From Schmidtea polychroa (Eukaryota), in the NCBI GenBank assembly GCA_044892525.1, contig CM097885.1:29576001-29640000 (forward strand): 64,000 bases of DNA, written 5' to 3'. The notes beneath the pieces are model-generated. The model saw only the letters and a list, made by a program, of their open reading frames with translations. It was not told the DNA's origin and made no database searches. Of the stretch, positions 35,498 through 62,871 are shown piece by piece. Every line of letters begins with the position of its first letter. Within the stretch, counting starts at the first letter, position 1. The position numbers and the translations under genes are program-made.

Positions 35498-35555
35498 TAC
35501 AACAAGAAGATTTAAAATTAAATTTAATGTCGGGCAATGAAGGATTAGCACCCAT
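35328..35555 (-). CDS. Mirror copy, putative myristoylated protein
   Basis: Identical translation to 32347-32574. Confidence 0.5.
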   Translation of the reverse strand: MGANPSLPDIKFNFKSSCCNGEDLDEPRRRSRFRWSGKIKQKSSEFEKRNPEVVIRSACVQFEQTNAEKISNKSV

Positions 35556-35558
35556 TGT

Positions 35559-36092: not shown

Positions 36093-36110
36093 TATTATTC
36101 ATAGAGGTTT

Positions 36111-36737: not shown

Positions 36738-36836
36738 TTCAAATATTTTATAAATGTGTATTTGTTTATATTCGATGATTTAATGAACTCGTGCTCAATT
36801 TGTATATAAAGACTAATTTTCATAAATGATTTAATA

Positions 36837-37274: not shown

Positions 37275-37347
37275 TTGGTTAATTTCTAATTGGTTATTGA
37301 TTGATTTAAACAAACGGTTTTTGTTTAGAATTCATTTTTTCAACACT

Positions 37348-37761
37348 ATGTACAAATTACCAAGCTCTGCAACCCTCATGAAAGATATCGACGATTCCGG
37401 TAAATTTAAAATTTTTTTTTCACATTATTTACTATTTATTATTTTAGAGAAATATTTAGAAGTTATGATAAAAAGGATAAAATATTATTATCCTCAAATT
37501 ATTGAAATTATCAAGGATCGCGAACCTGAGATCATTCCAGATCTGATATTCTATGCGACTCAAATTCGAATCATGGATGTATTTCACCAGTTTCTGTGGG
37601 ATATAAAGATTAACAGAACCATCAAACAAATGGAGCCAGAGTACCAGTGCATCATCGGATGCTCATGTTGCGCCGATCGATATCGGCGATATGTCGAATG
37701 GGAGTTAGTGAAAACTCTGAGAAGGTTTCACTACTCCAAGATTGTAGATTTGGGTTATTAA
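37348..37761 (+). CDS. Mirror copy, CxxxCxCC protein (intron 37400-37447)
   Basis: Identical translation to the left copy. Confidence 0.6.
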   Translation: MYKLPSSATLMKDIDDSGKFKIFFSHYLLFIILEKYLEVMIKRIKYYYPQIIEIIKDREPEIIPDLIFYATQIRIMDVFHQFLWDIKINRTIKQMEPEYQCIIGCSCCADRYRRYVEWELVKTLRRFHYSKIVDLGY

Positions 37762-38121
37762 TAAATGTATTTTTTATTGTGTTTTATCTTTTTTATTGTG
37801 TTTTATTGTGTTTTATATTTGAAATAATAATAGTAATAATAATAATAGTAATAATAATAATAATAGTAATAGAAATATGAATAGTAATAATAGTAAAAAC
37901 ATTAATAATAATGAAACATATTAATAATAAATCTGTACATATATCAAAACATGTAATAATTTAAACATTAATAATAAATCTGTAAATAGAACATGTGACA
38001 ATGCAACATCAATGCATTTTGAATGCAATTTAAACAAAGACATGCTATAATCTGATTGGTTGATAGGCATGAGTCAAAGGTATAAAAACCCTGTAACATT
38101 TAAATTTATTCATTATTCACG

Positions 38122-38532
38122 ATGACCAAGAAAATTTCAAGCACCGAAAAACCTAAAGAAATGGTACAACCAGTTCAAATGTTCCACAACTACAAAATGT
38201 ATTTTTTGAAAGAAGAAATCAATATGAAATTGGTTGCACCAGTCAAGCTAATTCCAACTAAATTTGAATTCTTATCCGGCACGCTTTCAATGATTGATGT
38301 CAAAACTATTGATGATGTTTTTAAACGGATAGATTCGAATCTATCGTGTAATCAACATGCATGGTTCAACAATAAATATGCAAGATTTTATGATTCCTTT
38401 GATGAAATCGCTTTCAAAGAAAATGAAAATTGGTATATAACAATTGCAATCCAGGGATATAAAGTTGATAATAATGATGTATATTCTCCTATTTGGAAAA
38501 TTATGTCTGCTAGACTTTCACAAATATTTTAA
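38122..38532 (+). CDS. Mirror copy, 136-aa unknown protein
   Basis: Identical translation to 29370-29780. Confidence 0.6.
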   Translation: MTKKISSTEKPKEMVQPVQMFHNYKMYFLKEEINMKLVAPVKLIPTKFEFLSGTLSMIDVKTIDDVFKRIDSNLSCNQHAWFNNKYARFYDSFDEIAFKENENWYITIAIQGYKVDNNDVYSPIWKIMSARLSQIF

Positions 38533-38660
38533 TGTTATATTTAATAAATGTATTAGTCAGATTTGTTTTTTTCTCTTTATTAATTGCAACATAAATGCAA
38601 ATGACATGCAAATTTAACAAAGAAAATCTATAAACAAACTTATAATTTAGTTTTAAAGTG

Positions 38661-39038
38661 ATGAAAATGACTGTAGAAAAAGGTTAACATGATTAATTAA
38701 TTAATTACCGAATTATTTATTATTTAGAATTTTTAATCAACTTTTTGTTGGAAAAGTTAGCAGAAATATCTGGTGTGAAAATGGAGGATATATTATCTAT
38801 TACAAATGCCTTAAATATCGGCTGGTTAGTTGAGAGTCAAGATACAGGATTTGATGATGAGGAAGAAACTCAAGAAATTGATGAGGAAGAAACTCAAGAG
38901 GAAATCTATGAACCTATAGAGGAACCTATAGAGGAACCTAAAGATGAATCTAAAGATAATATTACGAATGATTGTATTGATCATGTCGTTGAAAATATAA
39001 TGAAATTTGGAGATGACGACTGCGAATGTGTTAATTAA
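38661..39038 (+). CDS. Mirror copy, acidic protein (intron 38683-38727)
   Basis: Identical translation to the left copy. Confidence 0.6.
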
Positions 39039-39097
39039 TAAATCTTAGTTAATTAGTGTTTGTAAATTTATTTAAAAATCAAACAAAAATAACTATA

Positions 39098-39618
39098 TTA
39101 ATTTTTATTTAAAAATCTGGTTAAAATATACAAAATAGCAACACCTGTTGCAAGTTTTACATAGTTTTTAAATTTTCTTTTCTGATCGTCTATTTCTTTT
39201 GCATTTCTGGCGAGTTGATTGAGTACTCCCCATCCGCCATTGGCTTCAATCCATGGTTGAAACTTTGACTTGATTATCTAGAAAATAAATATTAATAAAA
39301 TATAAATTATAAAAGTATTACTTCTTGAGACCACTGATAATAGTGCTCTGAGTCCCATAGACTTCTTTGGATTATTATTTTCATATAAGCGAACCCTACT
39401 AGTATTCGGGTCCACTTCATCTGATCGTCGCATAGACAGTTAAAAATTCTATTAAAATAGAATTTTTTGGTTTCGAGACAATCAGAATTGATCACATCGT
39501 CATAATCAATGTGATTACCTTCTATAATCTTTTCGGTCTGATCGACCAGGAAACATAGGCTTTCCATAATATTCCTGTTGACGAGTTCTCTTAAAAGATT
39601 TTCCATAAATTGAGACAT
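39098..39618 (-). CDS. Mirror copy, Bcl-2 family protein (exons 39618-39322, 39277-39098)
   Basis: Same motifs. One substitution, DRTEK versus DQTEK. Confidence 0.85.
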
Positions 39619-39723
39619 TTTTACAATAATTTAAAATATGATGTTTTATTTATACTAATACCGGATGATTTTGATTGGTTGATAGACTATAAATGTAAAA
39701 GAAAGGTTTTGATTTGATACACC

Positions 39724-40224
39724 ATGAAAACTCTATTCATATTGCTAATTATTATAACGAGTGTGTGCTCACACAATACAACAATAACGGTGGAGTCTTT
39801 TAATAAATCAATATGTGTTTGTCCGAATACAGCCAAGTTGATGGATATTTTATATATTCTCGATAAACCAAAATGGTCAAAGCATCCAGGAAAAAGAATA
39901 TCTCAAAGATTGGAGAATTTAGAAAACAGTTATGAACTAACATTTGAATATATACAAAATATAAAAATTAAATTGATTGATCATATTGAGGTTTTCAATA
40001 ACTCTATTACTGAAAATAAAAAGAATATGAAGATTATTGATAAGAAGCATGATTATTTGTTAAAAAAGATTGAATTATTATTAAGAGAAATTCAAACAAT
40101 CAAAGGATCAATAGAATATCTGAAAATCAATTCAACGTTACCAATTTCTAACAATATTGCTGCGAATAGTAGTACATCAATATTTAGTTTACCTTTGTTA
40201 ATTTTACATTATTTTATTGTTTAA
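39724..40224 (+). CDS. Mirror copy, secreted / GPI-anchored protein
   Basis: Identical translation to 27677-28177. Confidence 0.7.
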   Translation: MKTLFILLIIITSVCSHNTTITVESFNKSICVCPNTAKLMDILYILDKPKWSKHPGKRISQRLENLENSYELTFEYIQNIKIKLIDHIEVFNNSITENKKNMKIIDKKHDYLLKKIELLLREIQTIKGSIEYLKINSTLPISNNIAANSSTSIFSLPLLILHYFIV

Positions 40225-40357
40225 ATAAATGTATGTTTTGTTGATTTGTTGATTTGTTGAGCGTGACCAGTACCCTTGTGAGCATTACCCATAGGGGGAC
40301 AAAATATTTTGTCGGATAGACTCAAAGTATATAGACTCGGTGTATATAGATTAATAC

Positions 40358-40522
<165 letters not shown>

Positions 40523-40677
40523 GATATATGGCTCATTCGAAAGGTCTTGGATTGAGCTTTAAAATGAGCTATCGATTATTAATTTTCGTTGGCGGGAACT
40601 TTGAAAAAATTAAAAATAAAATAATAATATTTTTAAAAATAATAATAAAAATAATAATATTTTTTAAAAATAATAAT

Positions 40678-41332
40678 ATGACCTTGATGAGTCATCGCGA
40701 TGACTCATATGACCTTGGGAATGACCTTGGATGAGTCATGTGACCTTGAAAATGACCTTGATGAGTCATAGGATGACTCAGATGACCCTGAAAATGACCT
40801 TGAAAATTTTGATGAGTCATCGGATGAGTCATATGACCTTGAGAATGACCTTGATGAGACATAGGATGAGTCATATGACCTTGAAAAAAATTTTCAAGGT
40901 CAAATGAGTCATACTGTGAGTCATATGACCTTGAAAATGACCTTGATGAGTCATATTATGAGTCATATGACCTTGAAAATGACCTTGATGAGTCATATTA
41001 TGAGTCATATGACCTCGAAAAAATTTTTCAGGGCCAAATGAGTCATACTATGAGTCATACGACCTTGAAAATGACCTTGATGAGTCATACTATGAGTCAT
41101 GGTCTTTGTTTCAATGGCCTTGATGAGTCATAGGATGAGTCATATGACCTTGAAAAATTTTTTTCAAGGGCATATGAGTCATATGACCTTGAAAATGACC
41201 TTGATGAGTCATCGGATGAGTCATGGTCTTTGTTTAAATGCCCTTGAAAAATTTTATGAGTCATAGGATGACTCATGGTCTTTGTTTCAATGACCTTGAT
41301 GAGTCATATGTCTTTGTTTAAATTTGACCTTG
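40678..41332. promoter_or_regulatory. Subterminal motif array (right arm, shorter)
   Basis: Reverse-complement array ATGAGTCAT / TGACCTTGA with fewer units than the left arm. Confidence 0.6.
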
Positions 41333-42259
41333 AAAAAAAAATGTACTTTTAGACTTAGAATATTTTTGAAAATCTTACCGACGGGGGGGGGGTACTGTGC
41401 TAGCGGTGCCCTGTGCCAGCGGTGCCCAATCCATCTACTATCATTATTTCCCCAATCATTTTACTCATTTAACAATTATTTTGGTTTTATTATTTGGTTA
41501 TCCTCAACAACCCTATATTGTAAAACTAATATTACTAAATGAATTTTAAAGTTATAATATTGCATATTAATGTTAAAGGTCAAATATCATATAAGGAATT
41601 AATTTATTCGTGCGTTACGTAATCTAATTCAATTACTTGGTGATTACGGAGGCTCTACAATTAAAATAATAGTACAGTTGTTATTCAAATATAAATTTTA
41701 AAATGACAACGCCAAAAATGTACTTACATCGATGACTCTAGGAGATTGAATAAAAAAACAAGAGATTCTCTACTAAATGCTAGGAAACTCTTGGATATGA
41801 AGACTAATAGATATTATGGCAAATGCACTAAAGAAACTTAAAATGAATACAATAAATTGATATTATATCCCCATACATATTGTTAATTCACACTTCCCAT
41901 CGACACTAACATGTTTAACACTTACAATTTCATTTTCTGAAGTGTTTTCAATAATGGAATGTAATGTATGACACCCAGTTTCATAGAATAACTTTACTTC
42001 TATTATCAAGAAAGTCAATAATTTGATATTATATAAAAACGTAACCTGAGTGTTGACACAGCACAGTAAAAATTCATTTTAACTTTTAATAGATGTAACA
42101 ATTACACAAAACATCTGGTTATTCTGCAAATTCCTTTCTGGACAATATCGTGAGACATGATTCGCTCAGCATCGATTCAATATTATCGGTTTATCTTTAT
42201 TATTTTGCTTACATTTTTTTCCAGGCTTAAATTTCGCGAGTTTTGGTGTTTCGGTGTCG

Positions 42260-42690
42260 TAAAGGAATAAATACACTTTTTGTAATTTCTTGTGTGGGTT
42301 CAGACACTCAGGCTCCTGATTTTCATTTTCTGAATCTTTTGGAAATAAACGGTTCATTATTTTTGTAGCAAATCCTTTAACTTTATGTTTAGTTGAATAT
42401 TCAAAAAATTTATTATTTTCAGGATACATGCCGTGGTGTAGAAATGATAGTAAAGTCATCAATTCTTTATTTCGCCGTTTTTCAATTCGAGATTTCAAAT
42501 TATTCAAGAATTCTGTCGCAAGCGGAGTTTTAATCAATTCTAATTCTTGAAATACATATAGTAATGTTCCGTCTCCAGTTAATAAATTAGAATTTTGTTT
42601 ACTCAATTCCAAAACAGCCATTTTTGCGGGTTCTAAAATTGAAACAATTTCTTTTATAAATTCAATATTATCATTATAGTAATGATATTA
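42260..42690 (-). pseudogene. hAT transposase internal fragment
   Basis: IEFIKEIVSILEPAKMAVLELSKQNSNLL..LKSRIEKR resembles the hAT LxPxxxAxxxLS region. Confidence 0.7.
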
Positions 42691-44080: not shown

Positions 44081-44476
44081 ATGAATAATATAAATCTCAA
44101 AATTCAAGAAAAAAATAAATTAAATCTTGATTATAATAAAGAATTTACTCATGAAATTAAAAAAAATGATATTTTAAAAATCTCGCCAACTTCAGGATCT
44201 ATTGCAAACTTAAATCGTAGGGGTGATATAGTTTTTCAATCTCTTCAAACATCAAACCCAATAGATATTTGTAATGCCAAATTATATTATAAAATTGAAT
44301 TAGAAATTGAAGCAAACAAAGATATAACCCTAGAAAATAATTTCTTTCCAAATTTATTCTCCAACATGAGATTAAAACTAGGATCATCAGAAATTGAAAC
44401 TGTTTTACATCCAGGAGTATATTCTACAATGTTAAATTTTATTTTGACTGGTTGTGATTATAAAAACGAATATGGT
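44081..44476 (+). pseudogene. Polinton 2 major capsid protein, 5' part (interrupted)
   Basis: LNRRGDIVF, NNFFPNLFS..LKLGSSEIE..HPG..STML. Joins 60539 in frame once the insertion and one TSD are removed. Confidence 0.85.
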
Positions 44477-44614
44477 AGTAGGTAGATAGTGGCCTACGGG
44501 AACAATTACCCCCCCCCGGGGGGGGGGGGGGGGGGTTTGTTCCCAAATTTTTATTACGCAATTGTTCCCAACTCATTTTTTTGCTTTCAGGGATTTTTGG
44601 TCCAAATTTTTTTT

Positions 44615-45690
44615 TATCACACTATAGTGAGAGGGTCTTGATGGTCCTGGGAATTTCTATACAAAAATCCGACTATCAATAAAAAAGTCAAGGATTATTC
44701 ACACTATAGTGAGGGGGTCTCGATGGTCCTGGGATTTTCAATACAAATAAAATTTTTTCAATACAAAAATCCGACTACCACTAAAAAAGTCAAGGATTAT
44801 TCACACTATAGTGAGGAGGTCTCGATGGTCCTGGGATTTTCAATACAAAAAATTTTTTTCAATACAAAAATCCGACTACCACTAAAAAAGCCAAGGATTA
44901 TTCACACTATAGTGAGGGGGTCTTGATGGTCCTGGGATTTTCAATACAAATAAAATTTTTTCTATACAAAAATCCGACTACCACTAAAAAAGCCAAGGAT
45001 TTTTCAGACTATAGTGAGGTGAGTCTCCTTGGTCCTGAGAAATAGGTGGTCTACACTAAAAAAAAACGTGGTAATTTAAGGTCTCAGGATATTTTCAATA
45101 CAAAAATCCGACTACCACTAAAAAAGCCAAGGATTTTTCAGACTATAGTGAGGTGAGTCTCCTTGGTCCTGAGAAATAGGTGGTCTACACTAAAAAAACG
45201 TGGTAATTTAAGGTCTCAGGATATTTTCAATACAAAAAGCTGGTCTACACTAAAAAAGCATGGTAATTTAAGGTCTCATGATATTTTCAATACAAAAATC
45301 CGACTATCAATAAAAAAGCATGGTAATTTAAGGTCTCAGGATATTTTCAATACAAAAACTGGTCTTCACTAAAAAAGCATGGTAATTTAAGGTCTTAGGA
45401 TATTTTCAATACAAAAGCTGGTCTTCAATAAAAAAGCATGGTAATTTAAGGTCTCATGATATTTTCAATACAAAAATCCGACTATCAATAAAAAAGCATG
45501 GTAATTTAAGGTCTCATGATATTTTCAATACAAAAAGGCGGTCTCACTAAAAAAGCATGGTAATTTAAGGTCTCAGGATATTTTCAATACAAAAATCCGA
45601 CTATCAATAAAAAAGCATGGATTTTTCGAATTAAATTAAGGTGGGTCTCCTTGGTCCTGAGAAATATGTGGTCTACACTAAAAAACGTGG
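44615..45690. repeat. Subterminal modular repeats (CACTATAGTG, TACAAAAATCCGACTA, GGTAATTTAAGGTCTCA); mirror 59320-60395
   Basis: Direct reading. Confidence 0.9.
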
Positions 45691-45699
45691 TAAATTTTT

Positions 45700-46400
45700 T
45701 AAAATTAAAGTAAATTATGGTTCTAAAAATTGAATTACAGTAAATTATGGACTAAGATTTTTAAATTACAGTAAATTATGGTCCAAATTTTTCAATTAAA
45801 GTAAATTATGGTTCAAATTTTTCAAATAAGGTAATTATGGTCCTAAAAAATTAAATTACAGTAAATTATGGTTCTAAAAAATTATATTACAGTAAATTAT
45901 GGTCTAAAAAAAATTGAATTACAGTAAATTATGGACTAAGATTTTTAAATTACAGTAAATTATGGTCCAAATTTTTGAATTAAAGTAAATTATGGGCTTA
46001 GATTTTTCAATTAAAGTAATGAATGGGCTCAAATAACTAAATTAAGGTTCAAAATTTTAAATTAAAGTAAATAATGGTCCTAAAAAATTAAATTAAAGTT
46101 AATTATGGTCCTAAAAAATTAAATTAAGGTTCATATTTTCGAATTAAAGTAATTAATATGCTCAGATTTTTCAATTAAAGTAAATAATGGCTCAAATTTT
46201 TCAAATTACAGTAAATAATGGTTCTAAAAAATTAAATTAAAGTAAATTATGGTTCTAAAAATTAAATTAAAGTAAATTATGGTTCTAAAAAAATTAAATT
46301 ACAGTAAATTATGGTTCTAAAAAATTAAATTAAAGTAAATTATGGTCCAAATTTAAAAATTAAGTAATCAATGGTAAAAAAATTAAATTAAAGTAATAAT
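45700..46400. repeat. ~30-bp AATTA(C/A)AGTAAATTATGG repeats; mirror 58615-59310
   Basis: Direct reading. Confidence 0.9.
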
Positions 46401-46679
46401 ATTTAAATAAGTAATGTAATATGTAAATTAAAGTAAGATTTTTAAATTTATTAACAAAAAGTTGAAATAATAGAAGGTGTTTGAGAATTGAAATTTTTTT
46501 AATGAAAATTTTCAATGGTAATTTTTAATGGAAATTTTTATGGAATATTTTTTTAAGTAATTTTTAATGGAAATTTTTATGAAATATTTTTCAATGATAA
46601 TTTTAGATGGAAATTTTTAAGATAATTTTTAATGAAAATTTTAATGAAATATTTTTCAAAGACAAATTTTATTAATAAT

Positions 46680-47800
46680 TCAACAACAAACTAACAACTT
46701 AGTACCAACAACCAGTAACTTACGAACATGTAGTTACAACCAGATACCTACAACTAGATACTAACAACTAGATACTAAGTACTAACAACCAACAACAACT
46801 AGGTACTAAGCATTATTAACCAACTACTAAGTACTAACAACCAACCACCTACCAAGTACTAACAACCAACTATCAACCAGATACCAAGTACCAACAATCA
46901 ACTAACAACACATAAAAATAATTGCAATTAAATACAAAATATTCTTCATCAAATACAATATCTTCTTATCAAAATCTAAAAAATCAACCAACTACTTACA
47001 ACCTACCAAGTACTTACAACCACCTACCTATTAACTAGTTACAACCAGCTAACAACCAGTTACCTGATACTAAGTACCTACAACCACCTACTAAGTACCA
47101 ACAACCAGCTAAAAACTAACAACTAGATACCAAGTACTCACAACCAACAACAACCAGGTACTAAGCATTATTAACCAACTACTAAGTACTAACAACCAAC
47201 CACCTACCAAGTACTAACAACCAACATCAACCAGGTACTAAGCATTAATTACCAACAACCACCTACCTATTAACTAGTTACAACCAGCTAACAACCAGTT
47301 ACCTGATACTAAGTACCTACAACCACCTACTAAGTACCAACAACCAGCAAAAAACTAACAACTAGATACCAAGTACTCACAACCAACAATAACCAGGTAC
47401 TAAGCATTATTAACCAACTACTAAGTACCTACAACCAACCACCTACCAAGTACTAACAACCAACTATCAACCAGATACCAAGTACCAACAACCAACCAAC
47501 TAGGTACTAGATACTAAGTACTAACTACCAGCTAACAACTAGCTACCAAGTACTAACAACCAACAACCAGCTAACAACTAACTACCAGATACCTACTACT
47601 TACAACCAACAACTAAGTACTAACAACCAGCTAACAACTAGATACCAGGTACTAAGCATTAATTACCTACAACTAGTTACTAACAACTAGATACCAAGTA
47701 CATACAACCAATAACTAAGCATTATCAACCAAGTACTAACAACTAGATAACAAGTACAAAGCACTGTCAACTAGATACCAAACACTTACAACCAGATGAC
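46680..47800. repeat. Strand-skewed A/C-rich repeats (AAGTACTAACAACC, AACTAGATACC); mirror 57215-58335
   Basis: Direct reading. Confidence 0.9.
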
Positions 47801-48130
47801 CACATGAAATTATTGGTTAAATATGAAAATAAGGGTTATAATTAGTTGTTAAGTAAATTATGGTGTAAAATTAAGAAATAAAGAGTAATTAGGTAAATTA
47901 AGGATAAGTAAATTAAAGTTAAAAATTTTAAATTAAAGAAAACAATGGTTCAAAATTTAAAATTAAGTATCCAATGGTTCAAATTTTAAATTAAAGCTAA
48001 AGTAAGATTTTTAAATTTATTATCAAAAGATTGAATAACCACCAACTTTTTTGAGAAATGTAATTTATAATGAAAATTTTAATGGAAATTTTAATGGAAT
48101 AATAATAATAATAATTATAATAATAATAAT

Positions 48131-48190
<60 letters not shown>

Positions 48191-51077
48191 TCAACAATCA
48201 GATTCCAACAACGATCATGTATTTTTAACTAGGTGCTGACAAATAAGTACCAAATACTTTCAACGTGATACCACGTACTAACTCTCAAACAACCAGATAC
48301 TTACAACTAACTACTTACAATCAACTAAATATTTTTTATTGTATTTTATGAAATGCTTTTTAAAATTAATAATTTTAATTACAATCAGTAGAAAAACCTT
48401 TTCAAATTTAACAAAAAATGTTGATTTTCATCAAAAAAACCACAACTCATCACCACGTGAAATTCAAAATAATTTAAATGAAAGACTAATGAATTCTAAT
48501 TTACAAAACATTCTTCTTTTAATTGATAACTTATTATCGCAATGTAAAAATCGCATTCAATAAATACTTATTGTTGATCAGTTTTATTATATATACTCTG
48601 AGTTTATCCGACAGGATGTTTTGAACCCCTAAGGGTACAGGTCGTAAGGATACAGGTCGTAAGGGTATTAGTCGTAAGGGTACTGGTCGTAAAGGTACTA
48701 GTCGTAGGGGTATTGATCACTCTCAATCCCCACCTACCCATTAAGTAGTTACTATCAATCAGCTAACAACTAGATACCATGTACTAACAACCACCATCAA
48801 AACCCATCGAGAAATTAACAAATATCAACCTACAACTAGATACATACAACCAGATACCTGCTACCAAGTACCAAGTACTAACAACCAACTACTTACAACC
48901 AACAACTATGTACTAACAAATTGATCTTTAAAAGCAAATACTCATCACTTGAAAAATTAGATGGAAAATTAATTGAACTCAAGGCATCAATAACTTGATA
49001 AAAATTGATTAAATTATTGTAAAAAATTTAAATTATTCGAAATAAATATCATAAAAATTTAATTAATGGACAAGAAAAAATTCTAATCATCCAATAAATA
49101 AAAAAAATGCTGATCATTCAAGTTGAATCAACTAAGATAATAAATTAATAAGATAAGATCTAGTAGATAATTGATTTAGATTGAATAAATTATTTGAAAT
49201 AAAATTTATTTTAAGTATTTTTTTAAAAGTAATACATGTACTCAAATCTATTTACTAATTCCTCAATATATTCAAAAAATCAGTATGAATTCATTAAAAT
49301 TATCAAAGTCAGCAATCTACAATAAAAATAATTATCATTAAATTCCAAAAGAGACTAGATAACTAATGATAACATCTAACAAACCAGTAAATTCATTTAA
49401 ATAATTGGTATATTCAAGCGAATTCTCTAATAAAATCATCTAAAAAGCATCAAATTTCCCTGAAATATATCAATATTTAAAGATTGGTATCTTATCGATA
49501 AGTACTTGTTAAAGATCATATATTCACCTCGAACTAACAAGATTCCTTAAAATCCCTCAAATGACTATATTTCTACCCTTAATTCGTATTATTACAAATA
49601 TTTCACTAAAATCATCTAAAAAGCATCAAATTTCCCTGAAATAACTATATCTTTAAAGATTAGTATTTTATCGATAAATATCCTTAAAAGGTTATATATT
49701 TACCTCTGACTAATAAGATTGCTTTAATTCCTATTATCACGAATATTTCCTTATAAAACATGTAAAATCATTAACCCTAAAGAATTTATAAAATCTAATG
49801 ACAAAACCGGTTATAATAAAATTTTTGTTAATCACTGTAAATTTTTGTAAATCACTGTACTCGAAATTTAAAATATATATAACTGACTAGGTCCCATTAA
49901 AAGATTAAATTTATCCATTCAATAAAATATATTTCTTCAAATGATCATTTTACCGATATTCAACCGATTTAATTACTAATTAAAATCAAGATTTCTTCCA
50001 ATAAAGATCAATTTTATTTAGTTGTCGATGTTTTAAATCAATATTTCTAAACTTTTGTCGTTGTCCGTCTAAATAAAGATAAAAATAATTTAAAGCTGAT
50101 ATCAATCCCAATTATCTGTAAAGTTTTCATCGTCAAAACCAAGTAAATCGATCATTATCCCTACTTAATAAAACATTGTTCTAAAATAATTTACTGTGCA
50201 TTAATCACAACCTAATAAAACGATATAATTATTATTGATTCATAACTGACTAATGTATTGCAATTTCCTTAAAAAACATTGATATTTTACCAACATCACC
50301 CTTAAAAAATCATATATTCCCATCGAAACCCTTCCCTCATTAAAAGCAACCGACTATATCTCCCTCACAATAATATATTCCCATCTTAACCCATCTCACA
50401 TTAAATCTAACCGACTATATCCCCTTAAAAGATCATATATTCCCATCTTAACCCATCCCTCATTAAATTTAATAACCGACAATATCCCATCTTATCCGAT
50501 CTCTCAGCAAATATTTCTACCCTTTTAAACATCTAACCGAATATATCCTTCAATTCTACCCACTTGAATCCTCCTTTAATTCAATTCAGTCTTAAAATCT
50601 TTAAAGAACTTCAAAAATATGACTTAATTGTTATAGACACCAAATATTCTTCCATTGAAATAATTTAGTAGCTATGTAGTAAGAGTTCACTAAAAGATCA
50701 AAAATCAATATTTTCTACAAATATTTACCATCAAATACTGGAGATGATATATATTGATTGATCATAATTCTTCATCGATTCAACCAATCATTTTCAAGCA
50801 ATAACAGCAAACTACAATCATTTTCAAGTAAGTTAACTGGTTTCTTAGCTTATGTTTTTTAAAGTTCATCAATGAGTAAATATTCTTAGAAAAATATTGA
50901 AAACATTATTTAGTCAAATACATTACAAAGTTATCATCAAAAATCACTTAATTATTAACCTAATTGTCAATGAAATTAATTTTTATTTAAAAACTATTCA
51001 ATAAAATACAACTAATTATCAAGAAATTAATTAAATTTATCATAGAACTAACTTTAAATATTCATTCAATAAACATG

Positions 51078-51255
51078 AAATTCACAAAAAACGATAAAAA
51101 TTCACAAGAATGATAGAAATTCACAAAAAACGATAAAAATTCACAAGAATGATAGAAATTCACAAGAATGATAAAAATCCACAAGAATAATAGAAATTCA
51201 CAAGAATGATAGAAATTCATAAAAATGATAGAAATTCACAAAAAAGATAGAAATT
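51078..51255. repeat. 19-20-bp tandem repeat AAATTCACAAGAATGATAG; mirror 53760-53937
   Basis: Direct reading. Confidence 0.9.
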
Positions 51256-54200
51256 TACTTGAATAAAACCATCAACTCTAAAAATTATCAATGAATGCCT
51301 TATACAAATTTGCCTAAATAATCATTCAAATAAAAACATTAAATACCTTTACAACTAATACCCTTGCGACATGTTGAATGTGAGTAGTACCCTTGTGAGC
51401 AATACCCATAGGGGGGACAGAATATTTTGTCGGATAAACTCAGAGTATATATTAATTAACTCATTTTTCATTGAATTAGTCAAATTATCATAAATTTCGA
51501 TAAAAAATCTAAAGTGGTAAGCAATGTAAAGAGAAATATTCTTTAAACTTTGATAAAATTAACAATGAAGGTGGTAAGAATCTTCATTAAAGTGAGTAAA
51601 TTACTCGATGATAAATTCAAATGGGTGAAAATAATTGGTAGAATAATTCATTAATGGAGGTAAATAATGAGAAGTGGCATGGATAACATGAAGGTTGATA
51701 AGAATGGAAGTATATTAATTTATTTAAAATTATTTCATAAAATTCATAAATTTAATAAAAAAAAAAACTTTTAAGACAAATATTTGTGGGGAATAATTAA
51801 TCAAAATCGGGGGGATATTAGTGATTAATTAATGGAAAATAGAGAATCGGGGAATATAAGTGAATAATTAATGGAAATTCTAGGGAATACAAATGATTAA
51901 ATAGTGGAAATCGGGGGAATATAAGTTATAATAATTAGTGGGGTATTGAGAATCGGTGGAATATAAGTGAGAAGGATATGTAATTTAAACTATTTTATTA
52001 CATAACAAGCCATGACTAGTTTATTGCATAACAAGCTGTGAACGGGATTTTACCAACATTTTACCTAGTATTGAATTTAATTTTTATTGTATTTTTAAAT
52101 TGTATATATTTTCAATATCATTCTATTGTTTTATTCCAATAATAAGTTTAAAAAGTATATAATGATTAATAAATTAATATCGTGTTAACATTTATTTGAG
52201 AATTTAAAAAACTTTACTTAAAATTTAGTGAAATATTTAATTTTGATTGTATTTTATAAGACATATATTTGAGTATTAACTTATTTTGATTGAAGTATTA
52301 TATTCAATATTATGATGATTTTTTTTTCTAAATTAAAATATTTTAGTGTAAAATAGTAAATTTAATAATGAATAGAATACAATATTAAAGGACTTTTTAA
52401 AAAGAAAAATTACTTTCTATTACCTAATTCCATCATTAAGTTTAAGAAGTCTATAACTGTTAATAAATCAATTTCTTATTCACATTTTCTTATAAAATTT
52501 ATATTTTTAAATTTAGTGTAAAGAATTTAATTTTAATTGTATTTTATAAGTCATTTATTTGAATATTTATCTTATTTTTATTGAAAGGAGTAATATAATT
52601 AATAATATGATAATTGTTTTTGAAATATTTAGTGTAGAATAATAAATTTATTAATAAATAATTATTACAATATTAAAGGACTTATACAACAAAATTTTTG
52701 TCTTATTCCATAAAAAAGTTTTAAAGTATATAACTGGTAATAAATTAATTTCTTATTTAAATTTATTTAAAAAAGCTTTACTTATAAAATTTGTATTTTC
52801 TAAGATATATATTTGAATATTCAACTTATTTTGAATGAAAAGGGTAATATATATTATTTTCTTTTATGATAATTGTTTTTGAAATACATAATGTAAATTA
52901 AAACATTTTAGTATTAATTAGTTATTATTTTAGAATTTATTTTTGTCAAAAATTTAAAAAAAAATAAGACCATTCACAGCTTGTTATGTAATAAACTAGT
53001 CACGGCTTGTTATGTAATAAACTAGTTTAAATTACATATCCTTCTCACTTATATTCCACCGATTCTCAATACCCCACTAATTATTATAACTTATATTCCC
53101 CCGATTTCCACTATTTAATCATTTGTATTCCCTAGAATTTCCATTAATTATTCACTTATATTCCCCGATTCTCTATTTTCCATTAATTAATCACTAATAT
53201 CCCCCCGATTTTGATTAATTATTCCCCACAAATATTTGTCTTAAAAGTTTTTTTTTTATTAAATTTATGAATTTTATGAAATAATTTTAAATAAATTAAT
53301 ATACTTCCATTCTTATCAACCTTCATGTTATCCATGCCACTTCTCATTATTTACCTCCATTAATGAATTATTCTACCAATTATTTTCACCCATTTGAATT
53401 TATCATCGAGTAATTTACTCACTTTAATGAAGATTCTTACCACCTTCATTGTTAATTTTATCAAAGTTTAAAGAATATTTCTCTTTACATTGCTTACCAC
53501 TTTAGATTTTTTATCGAAATTTATGATAATTTGACTAATTCAATGAAAAATGAGTTAATTAATATATACTCTGAGTTTATCCGACAAAATATTCTGTCCC
53601 CCCTATGGGTATTGCTCACAAGGGTACTACTCACATTCAACATGTCGCAAGGGTATTAGTTGTAAAGGTATTTAATGTTTTTATTTGAATGATTATTTAG
53701 GCAAATTTGTATAAGGCATTCATTGATAATTTTTAGAGTTGATGGTTTTATTCAAGTAAATTTCTATCTTTTTTGTGAATTTCTATCATTTTTATGAATT
53801 TCTATCATTCTTGTGAATTTCTATTATTCTTGTGGATTTTTATCATTCTTGTGAATTTCTATCATTCTTGTGAATTTTTATCGTTTTTTGTGAATTTCTA
53901 TCATTCTTGTGAATTTTTATCGTTTTTTGTGAATTTCATGTTTATTGAATGAATATTTAAAGTTAGTTCTATGATAAATTTAATTAATTTCTTGATAATT
54001 AGTTGTATTTTATTGAATAGTTTTTAAATAAAAATTAATTTCATTGACAATTAGGTTAATAATTAAGTGATTTTTGATGATAACTTTGTAATGTATTTGA
54101 CTAAATAATGTTTTCAATATTTTTCTAAGAATATTTACTCATTGATGAACTTTAAAAAACATAAGCTAAGAAACCAGTTAACTTACTTGAAAATGATTGT

Positions 54201-56822
54201 AGTTTGCTGTTATTGCTTGAAAATGATTGGTTGAATCGATGAAGAATTATGATCAATCAATATATATCATCTCCAGTATTTGATGGTAAATATTTGTAGA
54301 AAATATTGATTTTTGATCTTTTAGTGAACTCTTACTACATAGCTACTAAATTATTTCAATGGAAGAATATTTGGTGTCTATAACAATTAAGTCATATTTT
54401 TGAAGTTCTTTAAAGATTTTAAGACTGAATTGAATTAAAGGAGGATTCAAGTGGGTAGAATTGAAGGATATATTCGGTTAGATGTTTAAAAGGGTAGAAA
54501 TATTTGCTGAGAGATCGGATAAGATGGGATATTGTCGGTTATTAAATTTAATGAGGGATGGGTTAAGATGGGAATATATGATCTTTTAAGGGGATATAGT
54601 CGGTTAGATTTAATGTGAGATGGGTTAAGATGGGAATATATTATTGTGAGGGAGATATAGTCGGTTGCTTTTAATGAGGGAAGGGTTTCGATGGGAATAT
54701 ATGATTTTTTAAGGGTGATGTTGGTAAAATATCAATGTTTTTTAAGGAAATTGCAATACATTAGTCAGTTATGAATCAATAATAATTATATCGTTTTATT
54801 AGGTTGTGATTAATGCACAGTAAATTATTTTAGAACAATGTTTTATTAAGTAGGGATAATGATCGATTTACTTGGTTTTGACGATGAAAACTTTACAGAT
54901 AATTGGGATTGATATCAGCTTTAAATTATTTTTATCTTTATTTAGACGGACAACGACAAAAGTTTAGAAATATTGATTTAAAACATCGACAACTAAATAA
55001 AATTGATCTTTATTGGAAGAAATCTTGATTTTAATTAGTAATTAAATCGGTTGAATATCGGTAAAATGATCATTTGAAGAAATATATTTTATTGAATGGA
55101 TAAATTTAATCTTTTAATGGGACCTAGTCAGTTATATATATTTTAAATTTCGAGTACAGTGATTTACAAAAATTTACAGTGATTAACAAAAATTTTATTA
55201 TAACCGGTTTTGTCATTAGATTTTATAAATTCTTTAGGGTTAATGATTTTACATGTTTTATAAGGAAATATTCGTGATAATAGGAATTAAAGCAATCTTA
55301 TTAGTCAGAGGTAAATATATAACCTTTTAAGGATATTTATCGATAAAATACTAATCTTTAAAGATATAGTTATTTCAGGGAAATTTGATGCTTTTTAGAT
55401 GATTTTAGTGAAATATTTGTAATAATACGAATTAAGGGTAGAAATATAGTCATTTGAGGGATTTTAAGGAATCTTGTTAGTTCGAGGTGAATATATGATC
55501 TTTAACAAGTACTTATCGATAAGATACCAATCTTTAAATATTGATATATTTCAGGGAAATTTGATGCTTTTTAGATGATTTTATTAGAGAATTCGCTTGA
55601 ATATACCAATTATTTAAATGAATTTACTGGTTTGTTAGATGTTATCATTAGTTATCTAGTCTCTTTTGGAATTTAATGATAATTATTTTTATTGTAGATT
55701 GCTGACTTTGATAATTTTAATGAATTCATACTGATTTTTTGAATATATTGAGGAATTAGTAAATAGATTTGAGTACATGTATTACTTTTAAAAAATACTT
55801 AAAATAAATTTTATTTCAAATAATTTATTCAATCTAAATCAATTATCTACTAGATCTTATCTTATTAATTTATTATCTTAGTTGATTCAACTTGAATGAT
55901 CAGCATTTTTTTTATTTATTGGATGATTAGAATTTTTTCTTGTCCATTAATTAAATTTTTATGATATTTATTTCGAATAATTTAAATTTTTTACAATAAT
56001 TTAATCAATTTTTATCAAGTTATTGATGCCTTGAGTTCAATTAATTTTCCATCTAATTTTTCAAGTGATGAGTATTTGCTTTTAAAGATCAATTTGTTAG
56101 TACATAGTTGTTGGTTGTAAGTAGTTGGTTGTTAGTACTTGGTACTTGGTAGCAGGTATCTGGTTGTATGTATCTAGTTGTAGGTTGATATTTGTTAATT
56201 TCTCGATGGGTTTTGATGGTGGTTGTTAGTACATGGTATCTAGTTGTTAGCTGATTGATAGTAACTACTTAATGGGTAGGTGGGGATTGAGAGTGATCAA
56301 TACCCCTACGACTAGTACCTTTACGACCAGTACCCTTACGACTAATACCCTTACGACCTGTATCCTTACGACCTGTACCCTTAGGGGTTCAAAACATCCT
56401 GTCGGATAAACTCAGAGTATATATAATAAAACTGATCAACAATAAGTATTTATTGAATGCGATTTTTACATTGCGATAATAAGTTATCAATTAAAAGAAG
56501 AATGTTTTGTAAATTAGAATTCATTAGTCTTTCATTTAAATTATTTTGAATTTCACGTGGTGATGAGTTGTGGTTTTTTTGATGAAAATCAACATTTTTT
56601 GTTAAATTTGAAAAGGTTTTTCTACTGATTGTAATTAAAATTATTAATTTTAAAAAGCATTTCATAAAATACAATAAAAAATATTTAGTTGATTGTAAGT
56701 AGTTAGTTGTAAGTATCTGGTTGTTTGAGAGTTAGTACGTGGTATCACGTTGAAAGTATTTGGTACTTATTTGTCAGCACCTAGTTAAAAATACATGATC
56801 GTTGTTGGAATCTGATTGTTGA

Positions 56823-56882
<60 letters not shown>

Positions 56883-59800
56883 ATTATTATTATTATAATT
56901 ATTATTATTATTATTCCATTAAAATTTCCATTAAAATTTTCATTATAAATTACATTTCTCAAAAAAGTTGGTGGTTATTCAATCTTTTGATAATAAATTT
57001 AAAAATCTTACTTTAGCTTTAATTTAAAATTTGAACCATTGGATACTTAATTTTAAATTTTGAACCATTGTTTTCTTTAATTTAAAATTTTTAACTTTAA
57101 TTTACTTATCCTTAATTTACCTAATTACTCTTTATTTCTTAATTTTACACCATAATTTACTTAACAACTAATTATAACCCTTATTTTCATATTTAACCAA
57201 TAATTTCATGTGGTCATCTGGTTGTAAGTGTTTGGTATCTAGTTGACAGTGCTTTGTACTTGTTATCTAGTTGTTAGTACTTGGTTGATAATGCTTAGTT
57301 ATTGGTTGTATGTACTTGGTATCTAGTTGTTAGTAACTAGTTGTAGGTAATTAATGCTTAGTACCTGGTATCTAGTTGTTAGCTGGTTGTTAGTACTTAG
57401 TTGTTGGTTGTAAGTAGTAGGTATCTGGTAGTTAGTTGTTAGCTGGTTGTTGGTTGTTAGTACTTGGTAGCTAGTTGTTAGCTGGTAGTTAGTACTTAGT
57501 ATCTAGTACCTAGTTGGTTGGTTGTTGGTACTTGGTATCTGGTTGATAGTTGGTTGTTAGTACTTGGTAGGTGGTTGGTTGTAGGTACTTAGTAGTTGGT
57601 TAATAATGCTTAGTACCTGGTTATTGTTGGTTGTGAGTACTTGGTATCTAGTTGTTAGTTTTTTGCTGGTTGTTGGTACTTAGTAGGTGGTTGTAGGTAC
57701 TTAGTATCAGGTAACTGGTTGTTAGCTGGTTGTAACTAGTTAATAGGTAGGTGGTTGTTGGTAATTAATGCTTAGTACCTGGTTGATGTTGGTTGTTAGT
57801 ACTTGGTAGGTGGTTGGTTGTTAGTACTTAGTAGTTGGTTAATAATGCTTAGTACCTGGTTGTTGTTGGTTGTGAGTACTTGGTATCTAGTTGTTAGTTT
57901 TTAGCTGGTTGTTGGTACTTAGTAGGTGGTTGTAGGTACTTAGTATCAGGTAACTGGTTGTTAGCTGGTTGTAACTAGTTAATAGGTAGGTGGTTGTAAG
58001 TACTTGGTAGGTTGTAAGTAGTTGGTTGATTTTTTAGATTTTGATAAGAAGATATTGTATTTGATGAAGAATATTTTGTATTTAATTGCAATTATTTTTA
58101 TGTGTTGTTAGTTGATTGTTGGTACTTGGTATCTGGTTGATAGTTGGTTGTTAGTACTTGGTAGGTGGTTGGTTGTTAGTACTTAGTAGTTGGTTAATAA
58201 TGCTTAGTACCTAGTTGTTGTTGGTTGTTAGTACTTAGTATCTAGTTGTTAGTATCTAGTTGTAGGTATCTGGTTGTAACTACATGTTCGTAAGTTACTG
58301 GTTGTTGGTACTAAGTTGTTAGTTTGTTGTTGAATTATTAATAAAATTTGTCTTTGAAAAATATTTCATTAAAATTTTCATTAAAAATTATCTTAAAAAT
58401 TTCCATCTAAAATTATCATTGAAAAATATTTCATAAAAATTTCCATTAAAAATTACTTAAAAAAATATTCCATAAAAATTTCCATTAAAAATTACCATTG
58501 AAAATTTTCATTAAAAAAATTTCAATTCTCAAACACCTTCTATTATTTCAACTTTTTGTTAATAAATTTAAAAATCTTACTTTAATTTACATATTACATT
58601 ACTTATTTAAATATTATTACTTTAATTTAATTTTTTTACCATTGATTACTTAATTTTTAAATTTGGACCATAATTTACTTTAATTTAATTTTTTAGAACC
58701 ATAATTTACTGTAATTTAATTTTTTTAGAACCATAATTTACTTTAATTTAATTTTTAGAACCATAATTTACTTTAATTTAATTTTTTAGAACCATTATTT
58801 ACTGTAATTTGAAAAATTTGAGCCATTATTTACTTTAATTGAAAAATCTGAGCATATTAATTACTTTAATTCGAAAATATGAACCTTAATTTAATTTTTT
58901 AGGACCATAATTAACTTTAATTTAATTTTTTAGGACCATTATTTACTTTAATTTAAAATTTTGAACCTTAATTTAGTTATTTGAGCCCATTCATTACTTT
59001 AATTGAAAAATCTAAGCCCATAATTTACTTTAATTCAAAAATTTGGACCATAATTTACTGTAATTTAAAAATCTTAGTCCATAATTTACTGTAATTCAAT
59101 TTTTTTTAGACCATAATTTACTGTAATATAATTTTTTAGAACCATAATTTACTGTAATTTAATTTTTTAGGACCATAATTACCTTATTTGAAAAATTTGA
59201 ACCATAATTTACTTTAATTGAAAAATTTGGACCATAATTTACTGTAATTTAAAAATCTTAGTCCATAATTTACTGTAATTCAATTTTTAGAACCATAATT
59301 TACTTTAATTTTAAAAAATTTACCACGTTTTTTAGTGTAGACCACATATTTCTCAGGACCAAGGAGACCCACCTTAATTTAATTCGAAAAATCCATGCTT
59401 TTTTATTGATAGTCGGATTTTTGTATTGAAAATATCCTGAGACCTTAAATTACCATGCTTTTTTAGTGAGACCGCCTTTTTGTATTGAAAATATCATGAG
59501 ACCTTAAATTACCATGCTTTTTTATTGATAGTCGGATTTTTGTATTGAAAATATCATGAGACCTTAAATTACCATGCTTTTTTATTGAAGACCAGCTTTT
59601 GTATTGAAAATATCCTAAGACCTTAAATTACCATGCTTTTTTAGTGAAGACCAGTTTTTGTATTGAAAATATCCTGAGACCTTAAATTACCATGCTTTTT
59701 TATTGATAGTCGGATTTTTGTATTGAAAATATCATGAGACCTTAAATTACCATGCTTTTTTAGTGTAGACCAGCTTTTTGTATTGAAAATATCCTGAGAC

Positions 59801-60538
59801 CTTAAATTACCACGTTTTTTTAGTGTAGACCACCTATTTCTCAGGACCAAGGAGACTCACCTCACTATAGTCTGAAAAATCCTTGGCTTTTTTAGTGGTA
59901 GTCGGATTTTTGTATTGAAAATATCCTGAGACCTTAAATTACCACGTTTTTTTTTAGTGTAGACCACCTATTTCTCAGGACCAAGGAGACTCACCTCACT
60001 ATAGTCTGAAAAATCCTTGGCTCTTTTAGTGATAGTAGGATTTTTGTATAGAAAAAAATTTTTCGTATTGAAAATCCCAGGACCATCGAGACCCCCTCAC
60101 TATAGTGTGAATAATCCTTGGCTTTTTTAGTGGTAGTCGGATTTTTGTATAGAAAAAAATTTTTTGTATTGAAAATCCCAGGACCATCGAGACCTCCTCA
60201 CTATAGTGTGAATAATCCTTGGCTTTTTTAGTGGTAGTCGGATTTTTGTATAGAAAAAATTTTATTTGTATTGAAAATCCCAGGACCATCGAGACCCCCT
60301 CACTATAGTGTGAATAATCCTTGACTTTTTTATTGATAGTAGGATTTTTGTATAGAAATTCCCAGGACCATCAAGACCCTCTCACTATAGTGTGATAAAA
60401 AAAAATTTGGACCAAAAATCCCTGAAAGCAAAAAAATGAGTTGGGAACAATTGCGTAATAAAAATTTGGGAACAAACCCCCCCCCCCCGGGGGGGGGGGG
60501 TAATTGTTCCCGTAGGCCACTATCTACCTACTTATGGT

Positions 60539-61435
60539 GAATTAACAGGTTGGATTCCTGATGTTAATAAAGGGGATTTAGATAAAGATGGTTTAGATAT
60601 AAATTATGGTTACCATAAAAGAGCTGAACTTTATAAATCTAAAAGATTTGAAGGTTATTTTGAATTAAAACACTTATTTGGATTCCTTCAAAATTATAAC
60701 CGTGTACTTCATAATGTTTTTATAGAATTCATCTGTAATAGACTAGAAGGTGATAAAAGATTGTTCTATGGAGCTGCAGATACAAAAGCTAAATTAAAAT
60801 TATCAACACTTGAATTGCATATACCTGAATGGACATTAAACCCACATTCTGAAATCAAACTCCTTGAAAGATTAAATTCCAACAAGTCTATAAATGTAAA
60901 TTATTTAAATAGAATCTGTAGTGAATTTAGTATGACAGAGGGTTCAACATATTCTATAAAGGTAACAAATTTAGCATACCGACCAAGATATATCTTGATT
61001 GGATTCAAAGACACAGATTCATCTTTCCAAAAAAATAACAACCTATTTATTCAAAAGATTGAAAATGATAATTTAAAAACAATCCAAATTCAATTAAATA
61101 GTTCTTATTATCCAATAAATAGAATGGAATTTAATATTGAAAATAATGAAAACATATTCCCATATCTAAATTATATTGAAACATGTTATGATTTCAAAGT
61201 TGAACCGCAATTAAGTTTAGAAGATTTCAAAATTTTATATTCTATATTTTGTATAAATGTTTCAGACCAAGATGATCGCCTAGCCATAAATAATGTTGAT
61301 GTTACACTTCATGTAACAAAGGATTCTAATTTTAAAGCTAAAGTATATACATTAATATTAGAAGAAAAGAAAATAGAAATGAAATTATATGGCGGAAAGA
61401 TTTCAATTATTGAAAATGTTAGGGGAGATTCTTGA
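60539..61435 (+). pseudogene. Polinton 2 major capsid protein, 3' part
   Basis: Open frame from 60539: ELTGWIPD..LKHLFGFLQNYNRVL..LELHIPEWTLN..RPRYILIGF..LNSSYYP..YSIFCINVS. Confidence 0.88.
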
Positions 61436-61464: not shown

Positions 61465-62871
61465 ATGTCTTTAAATAAACCCTATTGGAGATGCGAAACT
61501 TGTAATTGTCAAGTTACAAAACACCATAAAGCAAGTCATCTTAAAACTAAAAAACATACGAGAGTTGATATTACAGGAGGTGATCTACAATCTTCAAAAA
61601 CAACATCTTCAATATTAAAACCTTTTACTACAGAAAAATATCTAGGTGACAGACATTTATTTAAACACAATTATACTGGGCCAGGAACAAGATTAGATAT
61701 TAGATTAGATGAAAATAATAATCCTAAACAAGGAGAAGAACCAATAAATAGAATCGACCAAGCAGCTTTAAAACATGATATTGCTTACAATTCAACAAAT
61801 CTTAGAGATAGACATGTTGCAGATGTGAATTTAATACATGATTTAAATAATATACAAAATCCATCAACCCAAGAAAAGATTCAAAGAGCTCTAGTTAAAT
61901 TAGCAATGAAAGGTAAGATTTTCATAGGCTTAGGACACAGTCCGATCACCATGGGTGCCAGACTTCCTAGGAAAGCAAAAGATGTTGCTAATAAAAAGAT
62001 TATCGAACAAGCAGAGATTGAAAGATCCCTCGAGAGTACAGCTAAGACTAGTTTACAAACCCCAACAGAATCAGAAATAAAATATGCCAACGAATTACAC
62101 CATGAATTTAGAAAAAATAAAAAATATTTAAAAGTTCAAGTACATGAAAAAGATCAAACATGGTCTGCTGACTTAGTCTTTATGCCAACCAAATCATCAG
62201 ACCCTGAAAAATATAAAATAATTTTAACTATTATAGATTTATATACAAGATTTGCTTTTGCAAGATGTTTAGAAAATAAAACAGGATATTCTATTACAGA
62301 AGCATTTGAAAATATATTTGAACAACATCAAAGAATTCCAAAATATTTATGGTGTGATAAAGGAACAGAATTTTATAACAAAGTTTTTACAAAGTTTTTA
62401 AATGAAAATGATATTAAATTATATTCAACAGAAAACGAAGGAAAAGCAGTCGTAGTTGAAAGATTAAATAGAACATTAAAAAATAAAATGTGGAAATATT
62501 TTACTGCTATTGGAAAACAAAAATGGAACAATGAATTGTTACAAATGATTGTAAATGAATATAATAATGATGTACATAGTTCTATAAAATTAACACCTTT
62601 AAATGCTTCCATGAAGCCTGAAACCATTAAAGTGGTAAATATTGAAAATGATGTTATTGAAAAACCAAAGTTTAAAATTGGTGACCGAGTAAGAATATTT
62701 AAATATAAAAATAAATTTGAAAAAGGATTCACAGCAAAATGGACAAATGAAATTTTTATTATAAATAAAATACATTATACAACTCCAATAACATATAGCA
62801 TCATTGATTTAAATAATGAAAAAATATTAGGTAGATTTTATAATAATGAACTACAGAAAACAGATTTTTAA
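61465..62871 (+). CDS. Zinc finger - parvovirus-type PLA2 - rve integrase fusion
   Basis: CETCN..HLKTKKH, ITGG, NYTGPG..IDQAALKHDIAY..RHVAD, WSADLVFM, WCDKGTEF, VERLNRTLK, FKIGDRVRI. Confidence 0.93.
   Translation: MSLNKPYWRCETCNCQVTKHHKASHLKTKKHTRVDITGGDLQSSKTTSSILKPFTTEKYLGDRHLFKHNYTGPGTRLDIRLDENNNPKQGEEPINRIDQAALKHDIAYNSTNLRDRHVADVNLIHDLNNIQNPSTQEKIQRALVKLAMKGKIFIGLGHSPITMGARLPRKAKDVANKKIIEQAEIERSLESTAKTSLQTPTESEIKYANELHHEFRKNKKYLKVQVHEKDQTWSADLVFMPTKSSDPEKYKIILTIIDLYTRFAFARCLENKTGYSITEAFENIFEQHQRIPKYLWCDKGTEFYNKVFTKFLNENDIKLYSTENEGKAVVVERLNRTLKNKMWKYFTAIGKQKWNNELLQMIVNEYNNDVHSSIKLTPLNASMKPETIKVVNIENDVIEKPKFKIGDRVRIFKYKNKFEKGFTAKWTNEIFIINKIHYTTPITYSIIDLNNEKILGRFYNNELQKTDF

Follow-up and report, generated by a model that had tools for sequence, protein, structure and literature searches.

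The 64,000-nucleotide stretch analyzed here, hereafter the window, comes from Schmidtea polychroa (assembly GCA_044892525.1, contig CM097885.1, positions 29,576,001 to 29,640,000 of the forward strand; coordinates below count from its first letter), and the subject of this report is a giant palindrome of 16,056 bp at 44477-60532. Self-BLAST returns a single inverted match that pairs 44477-52045 with 60532-52970 over 7,569 columns at 99.7% identity. The left arm (44477-52045, plus strand, 7,569 bp) is non-coding and starts with AGTAGGTAGAT, the right arm (52970-60532, minus strand, 7,563 bp) terminates in CTACCTACT, and the inverted repeat makes up 94% of the element. The arms enclose a spacer of 924 bp (52046-52969) with 14% GC, which is built from roughly three degenerate repeats, each about 290 bp long. 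The initial annotation, made from the letters alone, had described arms of about 7.5 kb around a spacer of about 0.9 kb, and this outline holds. A 58-bp piece of the spacer (52846-52903) is 78% like the arm at 48328-48384, which would suggest that arm and spacer have some ancestry in common.

The first letters of the element are AGTAGGTAG and the last are CTACCTACT, giving AGTAG..CTACT termini. These are flanked by two copies of TATGGT (44471-44476 and 60533-60538, both on the plus strand), a match that has a chance of about 1e-3 for a random 6-mer at the local composition. The AG..CT ends and the 6-bp target-site duplication (TSD) reported in the initial annotation are thus both present. Intact vertebrate Mavericks have (AGT)2//(ACT)2 or (AG)3//(CT)3 ends, 6-bp TSDs and terminal inverted repeats (TIRs) of 46-1,447 bp (PMC8097293), and Polintons are described as 13-25 kb long with TIRs of 100-1,500 bp and TSDs of 5-8 bp (PMC10748475); here and below, published values are those given in excerpts of the cited papers. 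Extended by one base, the termini read AGTAGG..CCTACT, in which five of the six bases fit the published (AGT)2//(ACT)2 pattern and the AG..CT end motif is present. The length of 16,056 bp falls inside the published range and is close to that of a second palindrome in the window (15,212 bp), both as the initial annotation had proposed.

The element lies within another Polinton, whose major capsid gene it splits in two. The first part of this gene (44081-44476, plus strand) is identical in 132 of 132 residues to positions 1-132 of the capsid protein P0001 (431 residues, taken from a public assembly), and the second part (60539-61435, plus strand) is identical in 286 of 298 residues to positions 133-430, with a Pfam DJR-like match at E 2e-23. 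Because the flanks match P0001 with no residue lost at the insertion, and because TATGGT is duplicated, this is a true insertion into the capsid gene. There is no stop in the 132 + 298 codons of the split gene, which suggests that the insertion is young. A search of viral contigs with the capsid protein found no locus. Downstream, the host Polinton continues with an open reading frame (ORF) for a PLA2-integrase protein and then a split ATPase-like gene; the PLA2-integrase ORF has 468 codons (61465-62871), with a PLA2-like domain at residues 64-145 and an rve integrase domain at 227-320. Some other origins were considered and rejected. A fold-back or amplification chimera of a long read would not come back into the corresponding flank on the other side, complete with a TSD; satellite DNA would not be a single bounded insertion; and a long terminal repeat element would have direct rather than inverted repeats.

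The initial annotation had stated that the element has no genes, and every line of evidence agrees. Across arm plus spacer, no stop-free frame exceeds 94 codons, whereas the longest frame averaged 99 in 100 shuffles, and the frames of at least 55 codons number 13, compared with 14.8 +/- 3.3 in the shuffles. A tblastn search of the element with 29 Polinton-type and reverse transcriptase proteins gave no match, including none for integrase, ATPase or capsid genes; the same 29 queries picked up a decayed remnant elsewhere in the window, and so the positive control worked. No open frame above chance level for a protein-primed PolB exists in arm or spacer. Rfam has no match in the element at E<=0.1, including no 7SL-like piece, and no RNA run among the runs listed as sharing sequence with the element was found. 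The 3-base periodicity typical of coding DNA is absent from windows over 49,100-51,500 (0.7-2.1, compared with 4.7-8.5 in three coding controls), and the possibility that the 61-bp and 176-bp repeats are decayed coding repeats was rejected because all six frames are filled with stops. TATAAAC boxes, for which both strands were searched, do not occur anywhere in the 16 kb.

What the arms do contain is largely repeats in their outer half. Successive tandem arrays occupy 44617-48190, with units of about 102, 119, 60, 31, 13, 25, 239, 29 and 3 bp, and arrays with a score of at least 80 cover 48% of the whole arm, mostly in its outer 3.7 kb (78%, compared with 20% in the inner 3.8 kb). The description of the arms as successive repeat blocks in the initial annotation therefore applies to the outer 3.7 kb and not to the inner 3.8 kb. 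Outside these arrays, a hairpin is predicted around a C-run/G-run at 44497-44546, with its mirror at about 60466-60512; the lengths of the C/G runs are unequal between the two ends of the element. The subterminal DNA folds with a z value of -3.4 over the left 124 nt and -3.9 over the right 123 nt, with none of 200 shuffles equally stable, and both ends would be able to form a hairpin of about 50 nt.

The other conspicuous feature of the arm is an 80-bp motif, present twice per arm in opposite orientations and so four times per element. The first copy (48590-48712, plus strand) is 78% identical over 69 bp to the gene-carrying palindrome described below, and it leads into 5.5 copies of a 15-bp unit similar to the end of the motif. 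The second copy is inverted (51372-51451, minus strand) and is 88-89% identical to 27568-27646 and 40255-40333, where the motif sits just inside the terminal repeat of that palindrome. Apart from the likeness of the termini, this motif is the only sequence that the arm has in common with the rest of the window. Its predicted fold is ordinary (z -0.02, 1.64 and -0.64).

Public sequencing runs indicate how common the arm sequence is. Of the 24 runs listed, 20 hold part of 48200-53000 and four hold half or more of it; contigs of four runs from three studies were mapped on 47800-53050, which is 5.25 kb of arm plus spacer, and metagenome runs with small word shares were set aside. The contigs placed there number 99,968, 14,774, 14,328 and 868 in the four runs, and two-thirds or more of them are less than 99% identical to the window. 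All 30 bins are covered in all four runs, the whole mapped arm stretch is abundant at an identity of at least 90%, and 167 sites are variable at a 10% threshold. In several samples the arm sequence forms a diverged and highly repeated family, and the contig numbers support the view in the initial annotation that this is a high-copy non-coding family.

The center is much less shared than the arm: the summed contig depth of the spacer is 6-15 times under the arm median, where summed depths are not copy numbers. The drop already begins within the arm, over its final 350 bp, and the bin at 51848-52023 has only 0.02-0.48 of the arm median, which would imply that the mirror image covers sequence that most members of the family lack. 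The bin with the second motif copy (51372-51451) has 3.2-5.8 times the arm median in all four runs, in part because the motif maps to two places.

These observations bear on a simple explanation, namely that the element is a single Polinton in decay, with genes eroded past recognition, and does not belong to a family selected as non-coding. Decay is the usual fate of these elements, as 96% of vertebrate Maverick loci are reported to be degraded (PMC8097293), and most of the arm's inner half is non-repetitive. However, a decayed Polinton would not be expected to lack every protein remnant and all 3-base periodicity while its ends and duplication are perfect, nor to have an arm that is high-copy at 90% identity or more. 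This explanation is already largely excluded, and we give it hardly any credence.

The second palindrome of the window (26228-41439, with AGTAGATGG ends and an ATCATT duplication) is a gene-carrying palindromic Polinton derivative, and it offers the closest comparison. Its genes encode an ATPase, an integrase and a TBP-like protein; the ATPase and TBP-like genes are duplicated and the second integrase copy is truncated. No polymerase or major capsid gene is found among its ORFs. The first 11 bases agree with those of the 16-kb element in nine positions, and the subterminal C-run is also common to both. Polinton-type ends and an insertion of integrase type are supported for the element by its termini and duplication, and the Polinton ends claimed in the initial annotation are borne out by AGTAG, which the element shares with a neighbor that has Polinton genes, together with the 6-bp TSD.

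The two arms of the neighbor differ mainly at their outer ends: of 21 substitutions, 20 lie in the outermost 1.36 kb and a single one in the other 5.5 kb; the arms also differ by microsatellite lengths of 12 bp and 39 bp. Its center (34516-34831) reads as a two-step junction, consisting of a fold-back with a 48-nt loop and a perfect 134-bp inverted copy, after which the sequence switches into the integrase gene at a microhomology of 3 nt, so that the integrase copy is cut. Judged from this junction, mirror duplication of one end by a putative template switch is clear in the neighbor, whereas the corresponding junction of the 16-kb element is a 53-bp imperfect repeat.

Some other details of the neighbor can be noted. 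The TBP-like gene lies head-to-head with the ATPase gene (30628-31065 and 36837-37274), and TATAAAC boxes are found 33 bp before the ATPase gene and the next gene. The integrase gene has an in-frame (TAT)n run at 32794-32860 and 35030-35108 that adds poly-Ile, and this run is the source of the 12-bp length difference between the arms. Directly upstream of the neighbor, 24115-25750 is a decayed remnant with 49-74% protein identity to the neighbor's central genes, and so the region appears to be a nest of Polinton pieces.

The initial annotation overlooked the most informative feature of the 16-kb element, which is that the differences between its arms are limited to the outer and innermost ends. 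The outer zone (44477-44990) has 10 substitutions, one 1-bp indel and the difference in the C/G run. It is followed by an identical zone of 7.0 kb (44991-51992) with no substitution and two 1-bp homopolymer indels, and then by an innermost zone of 53 bp (51993-52045), made of two 26-bp units, with four substitutions; the latter is a candidate landing zone for a fold-back. Outside the C/G run, the arms therefore differ by 14 substitutions, of which 10 fall in the outer 514 bp and the other four in the inner 53 bp; the probability that the middle 7.0 of 7.57 kb would receive none of them is 1.8e-16 under a uniform spread. The outer differences lie mostly inside repeat units of 82-102 bp. Of the 10 right-arm alleles of this zone, five can be found at other places in the left arm, and one variant that the left arm lacks is present twice in the right arm. 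Judged by these letters, the outer differences look like repeat-unit variants.

The contigs add a second kind of information. Forty of the 167 variable sites were displayed, 27 of these lie in the identical zone, and the 19 with the largest shares were picked. At 13 of these 19 arm sites the letter of the window makes up less than 5% of the depth in runs X2 and X5, and at four of the 13 it makes up 1% or less even in run X1. Both arms carry these family-rare letters. Since this copy has drifted from the family majority with its arms still identical, one arm must have been copied onto the other after the variants arose, and it is likely that one arm was re-copied from the other.

The same observations bear on the possibility that the ends are real and that assembly or polishing in a very high-copy repeat produced the identical interior or even the whole palindrome. 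The differences do cluster near sequence that could anchor an assembly (the outer 514 bp and the inner 53 bp), no listed contig spans the stretch or is shown to bridge the spacer junctions, and both large elements of the window are palindromic. However, polishing to the family majority would give common letters, and here both arms carry rare ones. The arms are also not a single sequence used twice, as shown by the two homopolymer indels here and, in the neighbor, by the microsatellite differences of 12 bp and 39 bp and the one inner substitution. In addition, the 3-nt microhomology at the center of the neighbor is too short for an assembly graph to cross, and the arm and spacer sequence was found in all four runs. 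An assembly effect is accordingly a quite improbable explanation.

Taken together, we think it reasonably probable that the element is a non-autonomous, copy-back-like Polinton derivative that was copied and inserted by a helper, and that a template switch at the center led to one arm being copied anew from the other. In such a scheme, the protein-primed polymerase of a helper Polinton would copy the element by strand displacement. Close to the spacer edge, around the 26-bp repeats, the polymerase would quit its template and copy the displaced first arm, thereby making a fresh mirror image as the second arm. The integrase of the helper would then insert the product, the ends and the size of the duplication being what points to an action in trans. 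Likely cis signals in this scheme would be the termini, the hairpin beside each of them and the 80-bp motif. The outer 0.5 kb may reflect a further exchange in the terminal arrays with another member of the family, or it may be the original terminal repeat, left untouched. Template switching is described for the protein-primed phage phi29, in which it gives subgenomic molecules (PMC4974454).

Several points weigh against this scheme. A single switch at the center predicts identical ends, and the ends differ, so that a second exchange must be assumed. No helper with the same ends was found in the window or in viral and metagenome contigs, the neighbor having nine of 11 terminal bases in common; likewise, neither the 18-23-mer from the terminus nor a degenerate core made from the 80-bp motif has a match in the viral and metagenome contigs. 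Among the contigs mapped on 47800-53050 no second insertion site of the arm family was seen, and no listed contig is shown to bridge the ends of the element or either spacer junction. The spacer, at 14% GC, may be under-sequenced, which would add to its low depth. Palindromic products are known from phi29 and from adenovirus minichromosomes. The phi29 molecules in the excerpt of PMC4974454 are subgenomic and not palindromic. Finally, conversion after insertion explains the same pattern.

This last alternative would have a mobile non-autonomous Polinton derivative whose arms were made identical by the host after insertion, either by fold-back or gene conversion that started from the center, or by repair of a break in one TIR from the other end that was extended inward; the outer 0.5 kb would then be the part that the conversion tract failed to reach. 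The position of most differences, farthest from the center, is as expected, and the differing zones of 0.5 kb here and 1.4 kb in the neighbor are inside the published TIR range of 46-1,447 bp (PMC8097293). The family-rare letters in both arms fit host conversion equally well, and butterfly Polintons with TIRs extended into genes are described in the excerpt of a preprint (bioRxiv 10.1101/2025.02.07.637071). Three observations are more difficult to explain: the four innermost differences lie where conversion that started at the center should be strongest, the outer differences resemble repeat-unit variants rather than mutations since insertion, and the stop-free capsid gene around the element suggests that there has been little time. 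Although host conversion agrees with most of the observations, on balance we consider it unlikely.

Comparison with known systems helps to place the derivative. The element resembles Polintons/Mavericks (adintoviruses) in its AGT-type ends, its 6-bp TSD, its length within 13-25 kb and its subterminal tandem arrays, and it shares the 80-bp motif and nine of 11 terminal bases with a neighbor that carries Polinton genes. It differs from them in having no polymerase, integrase, ATPase, protease or capsid gene, and in its inverted repeats of 7.57 kb (94% of the element) as compared with 46-1,500 bp. With no genes and an over-long TIR it is not an autonomous Polinton; with Polinton ends and a TSD in the absence of the enzymes it is probably a non-autonomous one. 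Repbase has non-autonomous families named Polinton-1N1_DR (PMC9341505) and Polinton-N1A_NV (PMC11296320), which, in the excerpts of these papers, are alike by name only, as non-autonomous derivatives; unlike the element, Polinton-N1A_NV has a capsid gene (PMC11296320). Tlr1 elements have sometimes been named non-autonomous polintons (PMC5499653), and for the anole the excerpt of PMC3014272 states that non-autonomous copies are absent. The butterfly Polintons of the preprint cited above also have inverted repeats that extend beyond the usual non-coding TIR, as in the neighbor. However, their TIRs are about 2 kb and contain genes, the core genes are kept, and the repeats are a small part of the element.

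The plan of the element is also that of foldback transposons (Drosophila FB, Galileo and Tetris), whose long TIRs are modular, contain tandem repeats and enclose a non-coding middle. One could therefore propose that a cut-and-paste transposase of the Mutator or P type moved the element as a classical foldback transposon, with ends that resemble those of Polintons by coincidence; long non-coding TIRs made of tandem repeats around a non-coding middle are indeed the foldback plan in the excerpt of PMC4079207. In that source, however, Tetris TIRs reach 1.7 kb and the TSDs of Mutator-type foldbacks are 8-10 bp as compared with 6 bp here. Foldbacks are assigned to Mutator or P transposases and not to an integrase and a polymerase, whereas AGTAG and the 80-bp motif are common to the element and to a neighbor with Polinton integrase and ATPase genes. 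Such a coincidence strikes us as very improbable.

Copy-back or snap-back defective genomes, such as the subgenomic molecules of phi29, are alike in their mirror-duplicated end and loss of genes and, on the reading favored here, in a need for a helper and in template-switch junctions. Adenovirus and adeno-associated virus snap-back genomes are further examples of copy-back products. Unlike these, the element is integrated with a TSD, is high-copy and is largely unrelated to any parent in the window. The initial annotation had suggested a giant MITE (a miniature transposable element with inverted repeats), and the element does resemble MITEs in being non-coding, with TIRs, a TSD and a high copy number. 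MITEs are a few hundred bp, though, and an element of 16 kb of which 94% is inverted repeat has a foldback or copy-back architecture, and so that label is not appropriate. A literature search of listings, abstracts and paper excerpts found no description of gene-less giant palindromic Polintons, although Repbase may contain an earlier one. The element is, in our assessment, real and unusual, a probable non-autonomous Polinton with a gene-less copy-back architecture.

The length deserves a separate comment. Intact vertebrate Mavericks measure 16,862 +/- 1,678 bp, and the authors infer a constrained genome size (PMC8097293). Viewed beside these values, the 16 kb of the element would be compatible with the capsid-size constraint proposed in the initial annotation. 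However, a fold-back near the middle of a parent of 15-17 kb would give a similar length without selection, which the gene-carrying neighbor illustrates. A bolder possibility, which we mention as speculative and rather doubtful, is that such elements are a class of integrated, gene-less satellite genomes of animal Polinton viruses. As linear palindromes, they would be replicated by a helper through protein priming with a programmed fold-back at the center, and the 80-bp motif, at four copies per element, would be an amplified form of the helper's signal for packaging or replication. Filler DNA would hold them close to genome length, on the premise that stable packaging requires full-length DNA, and they would spread in virions, competing with the helper in the manner of defective interfering particles.

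The replication of animal Polintons and their formation of particles have so far been deduced mostly from gene content. A gene-less element that retains only the ends and the 80-bp motif marks these as candidate cis signals, and the map of differences between the arms would be a record of template switches during copying. A narrow length range among copies, close to the length of a helper, would be indirect evidence for packaging. Polinton searches that start from proteins miss gene-less giant palindromes, which may be a sizeable unannotated share of the genome and a source of rearrangements in some animals.

Three other features of the window lie outside the palindromes described above. The 151-codon ORF at 42166-42621 has no Pfam match, and by eye we take it, as an impression, to be like the end of a hAT-type transposase. 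An ORF at 21926-23317 has reverse transcriptase and GIY-YIG domains and is Penelope-like by domain content; its flanks hold (ATT)n/(TTA)n runs and a direct repeat of 268 bp. Finally, an AT-rich imperfect palindrome of 1 kb (11097-12154, 83%) lies between short (TTA)n runs, without Polinton-type ends, and is probably an old MITE-like or foldback element.

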